Below are positions 21,640-33,728 of a stretch of DNA of 64,000 nt, one piece after another. The notes under the pieces were generated by a model, which was given only the letters and a program-made list of their open reading frames with translations, made no database searches and was not told the origin of the DNA. The stretch is from sequence record PQ871103.1; one strand, given 5' to 3'. Source of the stretch: Escherichia phage vB_Eco_ZCEC15. Positions within the stretch are counted from its first letter, which is position 1. Every line of letters begins with the position of its first letter. The position numbers and the translations under genes are program-made.

Positions 21640-22037
21640 TATACTCTGTTACTGGAAGCCAGTTGTAGTTTTATCTGCTCAATATCATCAGGGTTATCGA
21701 TGACTGAAAAGCGTATTTCTACTATCAGAGTATAATCATCATAAACCGGTATTACATTAACTGCTAATTTATCAATACGTGGCTCGTAGTTTCTTACTGC
21801 GCTTTCAATGTTACGCTCAACAGTATCAGCAGTAAGAGGAGTCATATTCTCAAAAAGCTGATCAGATAAATCGCATCCAAATTCTGGGTCAAATGGCCTT
21901 GACCCTTTCCTGGTTGTAATAATTCCTAAAAGGCTATTTTTAATTGACCTTAATCCAAGGGATCTAGAAACATCTTTATCCCAATCCATTTTCATTTCTG
22001 GGTCAATGTCAGAATAAAGCTTATTAATATTTGCCAT
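21639..22037 (-). CDS. 25: Baseplate wedge protein gp25
   Basis: 132 aa as T4 gp25; position. Confidence 0.9.
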   Translation of the reverse strand: MANINKLYSDIDPEMKMDWDKDVSRSLGLRSIKNSLLGIITTRKGSRPFDPEFGCDLSDQLFENMTPLTADTVERNIESAVRNYEPRIDKLAVNVIPVYDDYTLIVEIRFSVIDNPDDIEQIKLQLASSNRV

Positions 22038-22663
22038 TACAATAGCTCAAAGAATTCTTTGAGTCCTCTTATTACATGAGCGTGAGTTTTTCCACACTCT
22101 GGACACTTAATTGGAACAGCCAAATAAACAGTAGGCTTTAAAAGCATATCTTTTATAGCTACAATATCTGACTCTGTGATGATAGAATATAAATCTTCCA
22201 GTTCTTTTTCATTTAAGTCTTCAACTGGAATGCTTTCACCGTTAGCATGAATCGTTTCTATACATGATACTATCATGTGGGCTATATTTTTATCATCAAA
22301 AATTTTAGGGTAATGGAACTTAATTTTAATGTCACCCAGTGTATACCAGAGGTCTTCTGGTGCATCTATTTGTGTATGTAATAGATTTATATGGGTTGGT
22401 ATTTCAGTTCCACAGGTGCACTTCCAGGAGTTTTCATGATTAACTTCTCCAAGAGAATGCGCCCATAAATGAATCAGCAGTAGTTCTGATTCTTGACGGT
22501 TTAAATCTTTTGCATTTGTGCATTCTTTAATTAGCTTTTTAACGATCTCTTCTACTGAACCGTTCTTTTTAGCAGTAATAAGTTCTAGATATTCTTTAAG
22601 AGTAAATGCGCGACAGTTGATTATTTTAGAACCAACTCTCACATCAAATTTGTATTCATACAT
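22037..22663 (-). CDS. 26: Baseplate hub protein gp26
   Basis: 208 aa; position. Confidence 0.85.
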
Positions 22664-22684: not shown

Positions 22685-22696
22685 TATTTATAAATA
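22685..22696. promoter_or_regulatory. Divergent late promoters (TATAAATA on both strands) for gene 26 (-) and gene 51 (+)
   Basis: Sequence TATTTATAAATA contains the late box in both orientations. Confidence 0.55.
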
Positions 22697-22713: not shown

Positions 22714-23466
22714 ATGGCAAACATTATTCGCTGTAAATTACCAGATGGTGTTCATCGTTTTAAACCATTTACGGTAGAAGATTATCGAGATTTTTTGTTA
22801 GTTCGAAACGATATAGAACATCGGTCACCACAAGAACAAAAAGAAATAATTGCTGATTTAATTGCTGATTATTTTGGAGACTATCCAAAGACTTGGCAGC
22901 CATTTATATTTTTGCAGGTATTTGTAGGGTCAATAGGTAAAACTAAAGTACCGGTCACATTTGTATGTCCAAAATGCAAAAAAGAAAAGACAGTTCCATT
23001 TGAAATATATCAAAAAGAATTAAAGGAACCTGTTTTTGATGTAGCTAATGTTAAAATTAAATTAAAGTTTCCTTCTGAGTTTTATGAAAATAAAGCAAAG
23101 ATGATTACTGAAAATATTCATTCCGTTCAAGTAGATGAAATGTGGTATGATTGGAAGGAAATTAGCGAATCGAGTCAAATAGAACTTGTTGATGCCATCG
23201 AGATAGAAACATTAGAAAAAATTCTCGATGCAATGAATCCTATTAATTTAACACTGCATATGTCGTGTTGTAATAAGTATGTAAAAAAATACACTGATAT
23301 AGTAGATGTGTTTAAGCTATTAGTTAATCCAGATGAGATATTTACTTTTTATCAAATTAATCACACACTTGTAAAAAGTAATTATAGCTTAAATTCAATA
23401 ATGAAAATGATTCCTGCTGAGCGCGGATTCGTATTAAAACTGATTGAGAAGGATAAACAACAATGA
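22714..23466 (+). CDS. 51: Baseplate hub assembly catalyst gp51
   Basis: 250 aa; position. Confidence 0.85.
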
Positions 23467-28953: not shown

Positions 28954-28956
28954 CAA

Positions 28957-28974
28957 TGGGGACCTTTTGGTCCC
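28957..28974 (+). terminator. Terminator hairpin GGGGACCTTTTGGTCCCC plus T-rich tract
   Basis: After gp54 stop, between convergent genes. Confidence 0.65.
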
Positions 28975-28981
28975 CATATTT

Positions 28982-29272
28982 TTATTTACGGAATGAAATA
29001 AAAGCAGCAACTGAAGCAACTAAACTGTCTTCAATATAAACTTCAATTTTTACCGGAGCTTCTGACTCAAATTTACCTGTTACTACACCTTGGAAAATGC
29101 TTTCAGTCTGTTCTGGCTTTGAAAAATTTTCAGAAGGAAAAATTCCGAACTTTTTATCTGTTCCAAAAATTTTGATAAATTCATCATAAACTGCTTCATT
29201 AAAAGCGTTATCAGCAGGAATAACGCCTTCAACTACAAGTTCTTGACCTAAAAAGCGTAAAGAAGATTTCAT
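28982..29272 (-). CDS. Hypothetical protein (alt.-3-like position)
   Basis: 96-aa ORF, GAGGA RBS, directly downstream of early promoter cassette. Confidence 0.6.
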   Translation of the reverse strand: MKSSLRFLGQELVVEGVIPADNAFNEAVYDEFIKIFGTDKKFGIFPSENFSKPEQTESIFQGVVTGKFESEAPVKIEVYIEDSLVASVAAFISFRK

Positions 29273-29279
29273 TTTGTGT

Positions 29280-29333
29280 TCCTCATGTTATGTCAGTAAG
29301 ATTATTATAACACAACACGAGGGACTTGTAAAC
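29280..29333 (-). promoter_or_regulatory. Early promoter-leader cassette, copy 1 (-35 GTTTAC, 17-nt spacer, -10 TATAAT, leader to GAGGA)
   Basis: - strand GTTTACAAGTCCCTCGTGTTGTGTTATAATAATCTTACTGACATAACATGAGGA; identical 54-mer at 44848..44901. Confidence 0.7.
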
Positions 29334-31390
29334 TACATCTTGAACTTTTTAGACATTTCGTTGATGTTAACCAAAGAAGCCAAGATTTGAGAAACTTCGT
29401 TTTCCTCTTCTTTTGATTCTTCTACAAGGAATTGATTAAACCCAGCCATTGGACGAACTTCGCCAGTTTCCATTAGATGATCGCCATCATATACCGATTC
29501 TTCTAATTGTTCAGAAGGAGGAACGATTGTGCCTTCGATTAGATACTTGTTATAAGCAGTTTCTTTCATCATGTACGTGCTTACTTTATTAATCTTCAAC
29601 AAAATTCCACGCGGTAGAATAACTTCAGCTTCTGATGGAAATCCTGATAAATGACCTGGAACGATAACTTTGATTCGCTCAGCCCCTTTAATTACCATAC
29701 CTACGCTAGCTTCAGCATCTTCATTAGCATATGCAGAATGACTACCCATATGCATTAAATCTTCAGCATCAACAGAACCTTCTCCTTCACCAGAAAATAC
29801 TGCGCCGGAATCATCTAGAGCCATATAGTTTTTACCATGCTCACCGAAGATATTTGGTTTAAGCGACGTGGATACGAAGTTCTTGAAATAGAACATTTTA
29901 TTTTCAATATTATGACGTAAAGTTTTAAAAGTAACTTCTTGCCCACGATAAAGCGTAGTTCCTGGAGGAAGAACTGATCCTTTGGCGAATGCAGAATCCA
30001 GCGTCTCGATGTGTTTAATAGCTCGTTCAATGTATTCTTCACGGGTAGAATCTGGTTTACCCAAGAGGAACGAGTTCATTTCAACATATGAATCTGCACA
30101 ATAATCTTCAATTACATCAGACTCAGCCTGAGTCAGTCCTTTTGGAGTTACTTCGGTGCTTGCATATTCATACGCCTGAGCAGCAGATGCATTAATCAAT
30201 TTATAAATGCCATTCATGACAAATCGAATAATAGCTACCTTTTCGTCTGGTGTGGCTTTAGAACCTTTAACTAAATCATTGATAATTTTCTTAATAACAT
30301 CAAAGCTATTAGAAATATTAATGTCAGCGAGATCGCTCAAAATTTTATCGGTTTTATAATCAAAAAATTCTTTATTCTTTAAATATTCTTGAGAACCTTG
30401 ATGTGTTATATCGCTCTGCAGTCTGATAGACGGATCACGTAAACGTGCATGGGCCAATGCAATATCATTTCGGAAGCTTTCTAGTTCATAATCGTTAGAT
30501 TTAAAACGAGAAGCACTTCTCATACCACCGATAGCTCCTTTGCTGAAGTTTGAACCAATCTGAATAACGCCAGAGTTCATTGATCCTTCTGCTTTATATA
30601 CCGGAACTTTAGATTCAAACTCTTGATATTTCTTGGCAGCGAAGCTATCACCCTGTAGCGAAGCATCGACAGTAGAATATTGAGCTTGCGCTGCTAATCG
30701 ACGACTAATTTTAGTTTTCTGAATAACAGCTTGATCCGTGCGCTTATCATTTTCTAAAGCAACAGAAGCAGCAACAGCAACAGCTTTAGGAACAGCATTA
30801 CCTGTTTTAACATCTACATAAACATCACCAACCTTTGATTCAACTTTTGTGAATAACTCAGTTGAAATAGGAGGTACACCTGGAATGTCTTCTAAATTGG
30901 CATTTTTACGGTAAACCATAATATATGCATACTTTTTATCGTAATCCCAGATTTCCTTTAAAAGAACATATCGACCTGCTCCTTTAGTACGTACTAAACG
31001 GTCAGCAATAACTTGCATCTGACGAGCAGCGCCATTTGTTTTACTTTTTAGTACGCGGAATAGGCATGCGTCAATTTTATACTGTTTCATTGTTTGAAGA
31101 GCAGTATCAAAAACCGCATTAATGACACCAATTGGATTTCCACCCAAGTTTTTAAGTTTAACTAATGATAGTTTCTCATTAACACCTATCATTACGATAT
31201 GCATCATTTTATCGCCTGGCTTAACGTTTTTATTTGTATCACCGCCAGAGGTGTATGTACAAAATCTAAATCCAGGAAGCACGCTTTCTTCACCGGCTTG
31301 AATAGCAAAAATTTGAGGTATTTTATGCTTAGGATTTAAGTTAACAACCGGCGCCGAAGCGCCGTCAAATAATTCTGTAATAAGTTCCAT
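29333..31390 (-). CDS. Alt-like ADP-ribosyltransferase paralogue
   Basis: 685 aa; R-S-E ART motif (YRGQ, FVSTS, EAEVILPRG); N-terminus near-identical to upstream paralogue. Confidence 0.8.
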   Translation of the reverse strand: MELITELFDGASAPVVNLNPKHKIPQIFAIQAGEESVLPGFRFCTYTSGGDTNKNVKPGDKMMHIVMIGVNEKLSLVKLKNLGGNPIGVINAVFDTALQTMKQYKIDACLFRVLKSKTNGAARQMQVIADRLVRTKGAGRYVLLKEIWDYDKKYAYIMVYRKNANLEDIPGVPPISTELFTKVESKVGDVYVDVKTGNAVPKAVAVAASVALENDKRTDQAVIQKTKISRRLAAQAQYSTVDASLQGDSFAAKKYQEFESKVPVYKAEGSMNSGVIQIGSNFSKGAIGGMRSASRFKSNDYELESFRNDIALAHARLRDPSIRLQSDITHQGSQEYLKNKEFFDYKTDKILSDLADINISNSFDVIKKIINDLVKGSKATPDEKVAIIRFVMNGIYKLINASAAQAYEYASTEVTPKGLTQAESDVIEDYCADSYVEMNSFLLGKPDSTREEYIERAIKHIETLDSAFAKGSVLPPGTTLYRGQEVTFKTLRHNIENKMFYFKNFVSTSLKPNIFGEHGKNYMALDDSGAVFSGEGEGSVDAEDLMHMGSHSAYANEDAEASVGMVIKGAERIKVIVPGHLSGFPSEAEVILPRGILLKINKVSTYMMKETAYNKYLIEGTIVPPSEQLEESVYDGDHLMETGEVRPMAGFNQFLVEESKEEENEVSQILASLVNINEMSKKFKM

Positions 31391-31393
31391 GAT

Positions 31394-33490
31394 TTATCCT
31401 TGAACGAACTTGTAAGGCATGTTTGCAATATCTATGCAAGATGCAATAATTCCAAGAGATGATTCTACTTTTTGTTTAACATTTGATGAAACAAATGTTG
31501 CAAAGTCAACTCTGTCTTCTATTTCAATATCATCTGTCATTGCAACTACTTCACCAGTTTCCATTAGACTGTCACCGTCATAAATTACCGATTCGGTGAG
31601 TTCTTCTGTAGTCATAACTTCAGCTTGAATGAGTTTTGTATTATTAGATGTTGTTCCGTCATTATTAGAAGCATCAGTTATTTTATTAACTTTGACCATC
31701 AATCCGCGCGGCAGAATAACTTCAGCTTCTGTTGCTATTCCGAGACTTCCTGGATATACAACATTAACTTTATGAGCTCCATCAATTGCCCATCCTATTT
31801 GAACTTTAACGTATTCAGGATTTTCTTTATACGCTCTTATTTCATTTGGATTAATAGTTATTCCTTCTTCATTTTTATCAACTGTTAATTCATTACGAGC
31901 TTCTGGTTCTAAAAGACCAATACCAGCATGCGTAATTCCAAAACGTCCAAAAATGATAGGAGTTAAAGAAGTAGATACAAAATTTCTGAAATAGAACACT
32001 TTATTTTTAACTAGTGCTTCGTATATAGGAGCAGTCATGCTTTGAGCACGATAAACTGTAATGCCTTCTGGTATACGGTCACCATTTTCAAAGGCTGAAT
32101 CTAAATTATTTATCGCAGATTCAATTTCTTTTTCACTCATTACCTCATATCGTTCTGGATTGTAGCGACCTAAAAGAAGATTATTGATGTCAGTATATCC
32201 TGAACCACAATACTCTCTAATGCCGCGCTTTTGTGATGGAGTATATTTAGAACCATCACGAGCAATAGTAATATCAATCATTGGACCTGCACCAATTCCA
32301 GAAAAACTATAAATCATTCTTTTGAGGAATTTAGTTTTTGCTGCGTTCCAGGAATTTTTAGTTATTTCTTCCCAGACTTCATCTGTCTGTCCTTTACGAG
32401 TTTTATTATGTTTATCAAGCCAGTTATCTTTATATTCTTCAAATAATTGATTAACAACTGTTGCGTATTTCTCTAAACATTTTATTGAAGTAGTTGGTTC
32501 ATTTTTAATCGCATTAAGAATTACATCTTTAATTTTTTCAGAAACTTCATTAACCTCACTTTTTGAAAAGAATTTATAGTCATAATGAAGTTCATCTGCA
32601 GTTCCTTCAGCAATAATTTTTGCTGCCTTAGTTTTAGAAGCTAATGAATTAATTCCAAGCTTCATTTCTTCTGCTTCGGGAATTAAAGGAGCTGTAGCAG
32701 GTTTATTGAAATTAGCTGCGGTAGATTCATACTTCTGGAATAATTCACTTTCAAATCTAGAAGATTCCAATGATTGACTTTGTGCAATTGCTCTACGGGA
32801 AATTTTAACTTTAACGATTACAGCTTGGTCAGAACGTTTATCATTTTCTAGTGCAATAGATGCTGCAATTGCCTCATTTTTAGTTACTTGAGCTCCAGTA
32901 TCTTTATTGATATAAACATCACCGACTTTCGATTCAACTTTAGTAAAGAGCTCGGTACTAATTTCTGGAACTCCTGGAATGTCTTCTAATGATACATTTT
33001 TGCGATGTATAAGAATATATGCATACTTTTTATCATAATCCCAGAGTTCCTTAAGAAGGACGTATCTGCCACCTGAGCGACTACGGATAAGTCTATCAGC
33101 AATAACTTGAATTTGTCGAGCTTGACCAGCAGTTTTAGACTTAAGAATACGGAGCATACAGGCATCAATTTTATACTGACGCATTGTTTGCATTGCAACA
33201 GTAAAAACTGAATTGATATAATTAATTGGGCTTGGACCAAGACCTTTCAATTTAGCAATTGAACCTTTAGCAGTTAATGTAAAAGGAACAATATGCATCA
33301 TTTTATCGCCCATCTTTAAATCACGATTAGTATCACCTCCAGATGTATAGGTACATAAACGAAAGCCTGGTTGTTCAATTGCATCATCAACATGAACTGA
33401 AAAAATTTGTGGTATTTTCTTCTTTGGATTTAAGTTTGTAATCGGAAGAGTAGTATCTTCGTCAAATAATTCTGTAATGAGTTCCATCAT
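31394..33490 (-). CDS. alt: Alt ADP-ribosyltransferase (virion-packaged, modifies host RNA polymerase)
   Basis: 698 aa; R-S-E ART motif (YRAQ, FVSTS, EAEVILPRG); late promoter upstream. Confidence 0.8.
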   Translation of the reverse strand: MMELITELFDEDTTLPITNLNPKKKIPQIFSVHVDDAIEQPGFRLCTYTSGGDTNRDLKMGDKMMHIVPFTLTAKGSIAKLKGLGPSPINYINSVFTVAMQTMRQYKIDACMLRILKSKTAGQARQIQVIADRLIRSRSGGRYVLLKELWDYDKKYAYILIHRKNVSLEDIPGVPEISTELFTKVESKVGDVYINKDTGAQVTKNEAIAASIALENDKRSDQAVIVKVKISRRAIAQSQSLESSRFESELFQKYESTAANFNKPATAPLIPEAEEMKLGINSLASKTKAAKIIAEGTADELHYDYKFFSKSEVNEVSEKIKDVILNAIKNEPTTSIKCLEKYATVVNQLFEEYKDNWLDKHNKTRKGQTDEVWEEITKNSWNAAKTKFLKRMIYSFSGIGAGPMIDITIARDGSKYTPSQKRGIREYCGSGYTDINNLLLGRYNPERYEVMSEKEIESAINNLDSAFENGDRIPEGITVYRAQSMTAPIYEALVKNKVFYFRNFVSTSLTPIIFGRFGITHAGIGLLEPEARNELTVDKNEEGITINPNEIRAYKENPEYVKVQIGWAIDGAHKVNVVYPGSLGIATEAEVILPRGLMVKVNKITDASNNDGTTSNNTKLIQAEVMTTEELTESVIYDGDSLMETGEVVAMTDDIEIEDRVDFATFVSSNVKQKVESSLGIIASCIDIANMPYKFVQG

Positions 33491-33510: not shown

Positions 33511-33518
33511 TATTTATA
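33511..33518 (-). promoter_or_regulatory. Late promoter box TATAAATA (- strand) upstream of alt
   Basis: Exact motif about 21 nt upstream of alt ATG. Confidence 0.55.
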
Positions 33519-33524
33519 AAATTA

Positions 33525-33538
33525 AAGGCCCGAAGGCC
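33525..33538 (-). terminator. Hairpin GGCCTTCGGGCC
   Basis: Between 62-aa ORF and alt late promoter. Confidence 0.5.
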
Positions 33539-33539
33539 T

Positions 33540-33728
33540 TTAATAATCTATAGGTAAGAGAGTACGATATATTTCAAACTTTGGACCTTTTTCATAAGCA
33601 TCAAAAGTTTCTGTGAATTTATTATAAGCATATGCATCTATAAATTCAATCATAATTTGTGATACAGAAGTAGAAACATCTCCACCTTCTTTTTGAGCCA
33701 CGACAATTGTTTCTAAGTAAGCTTTCAT
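33540..33728 (-). CDS. Hypothetical protein
   Basis: 62-aa ORF overlapping ligase stop. Confidence 0.45.
   Translation of the reverse strand: MKAYLETIVVAQKEGGDVSTSVSQIMIEFIDAYAYNKFTETFDAYEKGPKFEIYRTLLPIDY

Follow-up and report, generated by a model that had tools for sequence, protein, structure and literature searches.

Escherichia phage vB_Eco_ZCEC15 (sequence record PQ871103.1) was analysed over a stretch of 64,000 nucleotides (nt), referred to here as the window, which is a Tequatrovirus (T4/T6-like) segment that encodes the portal, the gp21 protease (PF03420), the scaffold and gp23. The subject of this work is a pair of adjacent minus-strand open reading frames (ORFs) that a preliminary description had picked out as tandem genes of 685 and 698 amino acids (aa) for ADP-ribosyltransferases (ARTs) of the Alt type. 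Both ORFs are present, at 29333-31390 and 31394-33490; the upstream one is called copy 1 and the downstream one copy 2. They sit between gene 30/alt.1 and alt.-3/gene 54, the conserved genomic position of the alt family. In the surroundings of the locus gp48 and gp54 are encoded on the plus strand, and alt.-3 (DUF5498), both ORFs, alt.1 ('Phage_blade') and DNA ligase on the minus strand. Scans of the window for tRNAs and Rfam families found nothing. The parts of the two genes are as follows.

31394..33490, minus strand: copy 1, alt of the T6-type allele; 698 aa from the ATG at 33490, 697 aa from the ATG at 33487
32774..33487, minus strand: copy 1 N-terminal domain (aa 1-238), MELITE propeptide included; 99% identical to T4 Alt, 66% to copy 2
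32243..32773, minus strand: copy 1 hypervariable all-helical centre (aa 239-415); 33% to T4 Alt, 65% to WG01 gp200
31613..32242, minus strand: copy 1 ART domain (aa 416-625); 96% to WG01 gp200, 60-65% to T4 Alt
32042-32053, 31967-31981 and 31703-31729, minus strand: copy 1 ART motifs YRAQ (catalytic Arg), FVSTS and EAEVILPRG
31397..31612, minus strand: copy 1 C-terminal tail (aa 626-697), with YDGDSLMETGE at 31550-31582; the stop codon follows at 31396-31394
29333..31390, minus strand: copy 2, alt2; 685 aa
30680..31390, minus strand: copy 2 N-terminal domain (aa 1-237), MELITE propeptide included; a recombination substrate common with copy 1
30146..30679, minus strand: copy 2 hypervariable all-helical centre (aa 238-415); 45-46% to WG01 gp199
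29516..30145, minus strand: copy 2 ART domain (aa 416-625); 58% to WG01 gp199
29939-29950, 29864-29878 and 29606-29632, minus strand: copy 2 ART motifs YRGQ (catalytic Arg), FVSTS and EAEVILPRG
29336..29515, minus strand: copy 2 C-terminal tail (aa 626-685), with YDGDHLMETGE at 29459-29491

Integrity and distribution of the tandem genes

Both proteins match the Pfam family PF03496 (ADPrib_exo_Tox), copy 1 with 128.8 bits and copy 2 with 71.7 bits against a cut-off of 23.4, and both are covered end to end by phrog_802 ('Alt-like RNA polymerase ADP-ribosyltransferase'; residues 1-696 of copy 1, E = 1e-270; residues 1-685 of copy 2, E = 1e-254). For homologues that are 98% identical to the window proteins, the N-terminal domain has a precomputed assignment to PF26846 (Tevenvirinae_ADPRT). 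The R-S-E signature that had been noticed in both ORFs was borne out, in agreement with the PF03496 matches. The catalytic motifs are YR480AQ, FVS505TS507 and E587AE589 in copy 1 and YR482GQ, FVS507TS509 and E587AE589 in copy 2, the EAEVILPRG motif is found in each, and a check for missing catalytic residues found the triad complete in both. The ART fold is likewise common to copy 1 and copy 2, and a PDB sequence search with copy 2 gave no match. As judged from motifs and profile matches, both copies belong to the T4 Alt family of R-S-ExE ADP-ribosyltransferases and are intact.

AlphaFold2 (AF2) models of the two proteins, with a predicted local distance difference test (pLDDT) score of 73 for copy 1 and 77 for copy 2, show the same succession of parts, namely an α/β N-domain (approximately residues 15-215), an all-helical stretch (approximately 230-470) with alike helix spacing in both, the ART domain and a low-confidence C-terminal tail. 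The tail of copy 1 after the YDGD motif (residues 652-697) is of low confidence or disordered, and residues 630-685 of copy 2 have pLDDT values below 50. Superposition on SP18 Alt from BFVD gave template modelling (TM) scores of 0.70 for copy 2 and 0.36 for copy 1; the low value for copy 1 is probably due to domain orientation and to its lower predicted TM score (pTM 0.54).

Copy 1 is 98.1% identical to T6 Alt, and the T6 gene pair as a whole is approximately 98% identical to that of the window. When the window was compared with T6, G28, PhiZZ30 and UPWr_E2, the ratio of nonsynonymous to synonymous substitution rates (dN/dS) was 0.05-0.11 for copy 1 and 0.02-0.08 for copy 2. No region of either gene exceeded 0.15; the central regions gave 0.07-0.15 within their class and the ART domain 0.05. 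Both genes are under strong purifying selection, the central region of each allele class included.

A megablast search with the 4.9-kb region returned 341 phage records that cover at least 80% of the query, the best matches listed being 97.5-98.6% identical at the nucleotide level. Phage T6 is among the carriers of the pair, and copy 2 is found at 95-99% identity in 396 phage records. The possibility raised beforehand that the tandem arrangement is an assembly artefact was checked against these records and T6, which share it, and the pair is genuine. The gene pair is no discovery, since it is already annotated across hundreds of phage genomes, many of the matching records carrying the labels 'Alt-like ... 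(x2)' or alt_1/alt_2, and alt duplications in 44RR, RB49, Ac42, JS98, Bp7 and ZZ1 are mentioned in published comparisons (PMC1524935; PMC4177764). Shigella phage sb4 (PQ666542) was left out of the comparison; in this record the ligase, gp48 and both alt genes are all in fragments, most likely as a result of uncorrected sequencing errors rather than biology.

Mosaic relationships of the two genes

Identities between the copies were taken from a global alignment in copy 1 numbering. It can be seen that they fall into sharply different levels along the protein, with 66% over residues 1-238 (67% in the domain-wise matrix), 17% over residues 239-415 (18% in the domain-wise comparison), 36% over the ART domain at 416-620 (34% in the domain-wise comparison) and 31% over the C-terminal ~75 residues. 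An exception within the C-terminus is a 21-residue block round YDGDxLMETGE, which is 62% identical. Within the ART domain, the segment between the STS and ExE motifs shows only 13-27% identity. The preliminary description had called the first ~230 residues near-identical, which overstates the 66% found over the N-terminal 238 aa, and had said the same of the last ~60 residues, whereas the final ~75 are 31% identical and only the 21-residue block comes to 62%.

Its statement that the centres are unrelated holds at the level of sequence and profile. Comparison of the copy 1/T4-type centre with that of copy 2 by hhalign gave E = 0.14, that is, no similarity, with shallow profiles, whereas the centre of copy 2 against a KM16-type centre gave E = 2e-10. 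The wider family was sampled as 73 members from a representative library of 1.84 billion proteins. Throughout this set the N-domains and the ART domains are each mutually alignable, whereas the central regions split into 37 unlinked classes. The two window copies fall in different classes, that of copy 1 with 16 members and that of copy 2 with 10, WG01 gp199 among them, and no BLAST path through the 73 members links the two.

Tandem alt arrays occupy the same locus in other genera, including Dhakavirus WG01 (3 copies) and Bp7 (2), Gaprivervirus SP18 (2) and Biquartavirus Aeromonas phage 31, and the window copies were compared with such arrays by domain-wise identity matrices and neighbour-joining trees. 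The trees are incongruent: N-domains group by genome or genus, whereas the effector bodies group by type across genera. Thus the N-domains of copy 1 and copy 2 are 67% identical and those of the three WG01 copies 62-68% mutually, against 42-47% for cross-genus pairs. For the bodies, the ART domain of copy 1 is 96% identical to that of Dhakavirus WG01 gp200 and 94% to that of Bp7 alt, but only 60-65% to that of T4 Alt, whose own ART domain is 78% identical to that of Bp7 alt'. Copy 2 resembles WG01 gp199 in both its centre (45-46%) and its ART domain (58%). Given this incongruent grouping, the N-terminal similarity within a genome reflects recombination or lineage-specific constraint.

The mosaic contrast is stronger still between copy 1 and T4 Alt than between the two copies, with 99% identity in the N-domain, 33% in the centre (13-17% at residues 271-330), 60% in the ART domain and 91% in the tail. 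In nucleotide sequence copy 1 resembles T4 over nt 1-714 (95-100%), Dhakavirus over nt 1342-1878 (89-96%) and T4 once more over nt 1969-2094. On these alignments copy 1, the T6-type alt allele, is a nucleotide-level recombinant, and for its inner ~1.2 kb the nearest sequence is Dhakavirus alt.

The downstream alt genes of Dhakavirus differ in the same manner. In Bp7 alt' an N-domain of the gp199 type (91%) is joined to a T4-type body, whereas WG01 carries the common N-domain with a copy 2-type body; this is a further cassette swap, at the junction of N-domain and body. In the Acinetobacter phages ZZ1 and Henu6 (BFVD I3WW50, A0A410T5F4; PMC4177764) one Alt gene is split into an N-domain ORF and a body ORF, and the split falls roughly at the module boundaries inferred for the window proteins. 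Taken on the evidence of these comparisons, the effector bodies are old cassettes that have been exchanged horizontally between genera, and the pattern is one of ancient paralogy, cassette exchange and homogenisation of the N-domain, not of recent duplication with central drift.

A remnant of the second gene is present in T4. Alignment of the window with T4 identifies alt.-1 and alt.-2 (NP_049810, NP_049809) as the N-terminal ~118 codons of copy 2, with DNA nearly identical over the first ~370 nt, and not as a partial copy of alt, whereas the T4 RefSeq note ascribes them to duplication of the first part of alt. The PHROG families of alt.-1 and alt.-2 agree, scoring 138 and 131 bits with copy 2 against 78 and 70 bits with copy 1. 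Two lesions separate the T4 remnant from an intact gene. Loss of 1 nt in an A-run creates the stop codon of alt.-1 and the new start of alt.-2, and a deletion of 1,699 bp has a 9-bp direct repeat, CTAAAAAGT, at its ends. Both copies of the repeat were located in the window from the alignment.

31043..31051, minus strand: left copy of CTAAAAAGT, edge of the T4 deletion
29344..29352, minus strand: right copy of CTAAAAAGT

T4 alt.-2 ends in SLQVPRVVL, a tail encoded by sequence that in the window is the early promoter region of alt.-3.

In three sequenced phages, ECML-134, SCS4 and Yersinia phage PST, the only alt gene consists of the copy 1 N-terminus and the copy 2 body, with a clean crossover at nt 442-453. 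A metagenomic chimera has its crossover at nt 660-669, and further variants have an intermediate N-terminal composition. The N-terminal segments of the two copies share 67.5% nucleotide identity, with a longest exact run of 21 nt, and recombination between them is directly visible in these chimeras. The copy number of alt is unstable, T4 having lost copy 2 and ECML-134, SCS4 and PST having collapsed the pair to one chimera.

Expression and processing signals

The signals that flank and separate the two genes, together with the downstream neighbour, are listed below.

33520..33544, minus strand: terminator-like hairpin after alt.1, a UUCG loop followed by AAUUUU; RNA fold -13.5 kcal/mol, z = -4.0
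33511..33518, minus strand: T4-type late promoter box TATAAATA, exact match, 21 nt upstream of the first ATG of copy 1
31397..31401, minus strand: ribosome-binding site AAGGA of copy 2, within the last codons of copy 1, 6 nt upstream of copy 2
29304..29332, minus strand: sigma-70-type (T4 early-like) promoter TTTACA-17-TATAAT with extended TG; 11/12 positions match
28982..29272, minus strand: alt.-3 homologue (DUF5498), 96 aa, downstream neighbour; 215 bits
28956..28977, both strands: bidirectional terminator hairpin between alt.-3 and gene 54; -16.9 kcal/mol, z = -3.8

The late box that had been reported ahead of the upstream copy was found again as an exact TATAAATA at 33518-33511, and T4 carries the identical box upstream of alt. 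Exact matches to TATAAATA number 18 in the window against 8.9 expected. None lies upstream of copy 2 in the window scan, and one-mismatch matches upstream of copy 2 occur at chance frequency, none of them well placed. Copy 2 thus has no late box of its own, in keeping with the read-through or internal start that the preliminary description had proposed for it. It starts 3 nt after the copy 1 stop, across a junction that is identical in T4, and has its own AAGGA. On the minus strand no terminator-like site was found between the late promoter and 28977, the hairpin at 28956..28977 being the first such site 3' of that promoter. Since copy 2 lacks a box, follows after a 3-nt gap, has its own ribosome-binding site and is preceded by no terminator, the simplest reading is that the two genes would be co-transcribed and separately initiated for translation.

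The predicted hairpin at 33520..33544 would insulate alt from upstream transcription, and a conserved terminator upstream of alt was reported by Nolan et al. 2006 (PMC1524935). At the other end, the predicted promoter at 29304..29332 begins right after the copy 2 stop codon and would serve alt.-3. Because this early-like promoter directly follows copy 2, a late operon appears to enclose an early gene (alt.-3) at its 3' end. Elsewhere in the window, at 22685-22696, TATTTATAAATA contains two overlapping exact matches to the late-promoter box, one on each strand; these lie in the gap that separates the divergent ORFs 22037-22663 (minus strand) and 22714-23466 (plus strand), each box being approximately 20 nt from a start codon.

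Conserved elements are found at both ends of the proteins. Among the full-length Alt sequences aligned, the N-terminus follows M-E-[LIN]-[IL]-[TN]-E, with I-T-E at residues 4-6 in the window copies, and YDGDx[LF][ML]E[TS]GE is conserved at the C-terminus in every one. In a second set the C-terminal motif is present in 5/6 Alt sequences examined and absent from WG01 gp201, the shortest paralogue among them. T4 Alt is present at approximately 40 copies per head and is ejected with the DNA, gp21 having removed propeptides at both termini (PMC9026906). The earlier suggestion that the capsid-targeting parts were kept agrees with this, as both copies retain the MELITE and L-M-E elements that belong to the processed propeptides of T4 Alt (PMC9026906). 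The L-M-E within YDGDxLMETGE is accordingly a candidate for the C-terminal gp21 processing site, and the N-terminal domain of copy 1 is a candidate head-packaging module.

Tandem ATGs at 33485-33490 open alt in the window; T4 alt likewise has two, of which RefSeq annotates the second. A review gives the T4 Alt N-propeptide as '7-residue' (PMC9026906), and the Glu-to-Ala change that inactivates T4 Alt is given as E577A (PMC11404850), against E576 in the ExE motif by T4 RefSeq numbering, an offset of one residue. Both numberings fit translation from the upstream tandem ATG.

Proposed function and relation to known systems

Our favoured interpretation, to which we assign a probability of roughly 0.68, is that the pair encodes two late-expressed, head-packaged and injected arginine ADP-ribosyltransferases with different targets, each composed of a lineage-specific packaging domain and an exchangeable effector cassette. 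A single late message would start at the TATAAATA box that precedes copy 1, each gene being translated from its own ribosome-binding site. Each product would begin with the short MELITE propeptide and the ~230-residue α/β N-domain, which may direct incorporation into the prohead core, followed by the ~180-residue all-helical hypervariable region and the C3/VIP2-like R-S-ExE ART domain. The predicted disordered C-terminal tail would be cut off by the gp21 prohead protease at the YDGDxLME motif, with putative trimming sites after Glu6 at the N-terminus and after L-M-E at the C-terminus. The mature enzymes would then enter the cell together with the injected DNA and transfer single ADP-ribose units from NAD+ to arginines of host proteins.

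In R-S-E toxins the substrate-recognition loops lie between STS and ExE. Since the helical classes of the two copies are unrelated, their ART domains are 36% identical and their STS-ExE segments only 13-27%, the two enzymes would most likely modify different sets of host targets. The pair is old. Its N-domains follow the lineage of the phage, whether because tandem copies recombine, because the domain co-evolves with the head core, or both, and its effector bodies are exchanged between genera as cassettes. A more pointed version, which we put forward tentatively and at a little under even odds, holds that the N-domain is a lineage-specific packaging adaptor for cassettes, each made up of a hypervariable helical region and an ART domain, that are grafted on by recombination, and that copy 2 is a second injected enzyme with host targets other than those of classical Alt and possibly a counter-defence role.

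As to origin, the preliminary description had proposed duplication followed by divergence of the central module, with the catalytic part kept. A recent in-situ tandem duplication, with rapid divergence only in the central target-recognition module and retention of the packaging and catalytic parts, would account for the N-domain being the most alike (66%) and the centre the least (17%) within the genome, and for the identical catalytic motifs, but we regard it as improbable. It conflicts with the incongruence of the N-domain and ART trees, since clustering of N-domains by genus is the opposite of vertical divergence after a recent duplication. In its body copy 2 is 45% (centre) and 58% (ART) identical to WG01 gp199, but only 18% and 34% to copy 1, the ART domain of copy 1 is 96% identical to that of gp200, and copy 1 is itself a nucleotide-level recombinant. 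Nor does the supposedly retained ART domain, at just 36% identity, fit this proposal, or a centre that is under purifying selection inside each class (dN/dS 0.07-0.15). That the pair is an assembly artefact, or copy 2 a decaying pseudogene, finds a parallel in the T4 counterpart, which is a pseudogene remnant; with the whole arrangement in 341 independent records and as a pair in T6, and copy 2 full length with a dN/dS of 0.02-0.08, both readings were rejected and we give them practically no weight.

As to function, copy 2 could instead be redundant or serve gene dosage, or act mainly as a structural part of the prohead core, with an enzymatic specificity not meaningfully different from that of copy 1. 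T4 has lost copy 2, three sequenced phages keep a single chimeric gene, Alt is described as dispensable and also as a protein of the head core (PMC9026906; PMC11404850), and both centres are all-helical with a like helix pattern. We nevertheless consider redundancy unlikely, because strict conservation of the catalytic triad and an ART dN/dS of 0.05 point to maintenance of an enzyme and not of a mere scaffold, copy 2 is kept in 396 records at 95-99% identity, the STS-ExE surface is 13-27% identical between the copies, and distinct body types are paired repeatedly across genera. It could also be that copy 2 is unpackaged and acts late inside the producing cell, as an analogue of ModA/ModB that acts late. 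Copy 2 is without its own promoter and predicted to be expressed late only, and a literature search turned up no proteomic sign of its packaging, but it keeps MELITE, an N-domain interchangeable in chimeras and the C-terminal L-M-E, all features of packaged T4 Alt, which makes this very unlikely. Some points do weigh against two injected enzymes with different targets. The central regions, unrelated in sequence, may share a fold according to the models, so that a different class need not equal a different function. Any distinct function of the second Alt is dispensable on the hosts of T4 and of the chimeric phages, which do without a second Alt body. The predicted C-terminal cleavage position derives from the L/I-x-E rule, and our literature search found nothing on virion proteomics, activity or targets of copy 2, nor a functional study of any second Alt.

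The interpretation of the pair as two injected enzymes bears on how far T4 represents its relatives. The biochemistry of Alt comes almost wholly from T4, which holds only the wreck of the second gene; this absence would explain why copy 2, its activity and targets included, has gone unstudied, and it is there that the remaining interest lies. It appears that a second ADP-ribosyltransferase, as yet uncharacterised, is injected by approximately 400 sequenced Tequatroviruses, T6 included. Should it have other targets than Alt, the repertoire for host takeover or counter-defence of common T-even phages would be wider than the T4 model suggests, which, if true, would be relevant to Tequatrovirus candidates for phage therapy.

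Among known systems the closest is T4 Alt (gpAlt, NP_049811), a head-packaged and injected NAD+:arginine mono-ADP-ribosyltransferase that has the same locus, late promoter and upstream terminator, and has in common with the window copies the four-part architecture, the R-S-ExE residues and the terminal processing motifs. Copy 1 differs from it as an allele at the centre (33%) and in the ART domain (60%), both of which are of the T6/Dhakavirus type in copy 1, and copy 2 is 42-44% identical to it overall with an unrelated central region. The T4 counterpart of copy 2, alt.-1/alt.-2, has the same position and near-identical DNA, but the T4 gene is wrecked and that of the window intact. The tandem alt loci of other Straboviridae (T6, Bp7, WG01, SP18 alta/altb, Aeromonas phages 31 and 44RR, JS98, Ac42 and ZZ1) likewise hold 2-3 genes head to tail, the body types that are paired varying by genome. 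The C3/VIP2/iota/Vis-type R-S-E toxins share PF03496, but they have neither the Tevenvirinae N-domain nor the helical hypervariable region, lack termini processed by gp21, and are delivered by secretion or binary toxin components and not by a phage head. The T-even internal proteins (IPs) IPI, IPII, IPIII and their relatives likewise join a conserved packaging and processing signal to highly diverse injected bodies, which differ from one related phage to the next (PMC9026906; PMC12373910); the IPs are small and have a capsid-targeting sequence of approximately 10 residues, whereas the putative packaging part of Alt is a domain of approximately 230 residues. The modular pattern seen in the alt genes would, in parallel to the capsid targeting of the internal proteins, provide a testable rule for how injected enzymes diversify in T4-like phages.

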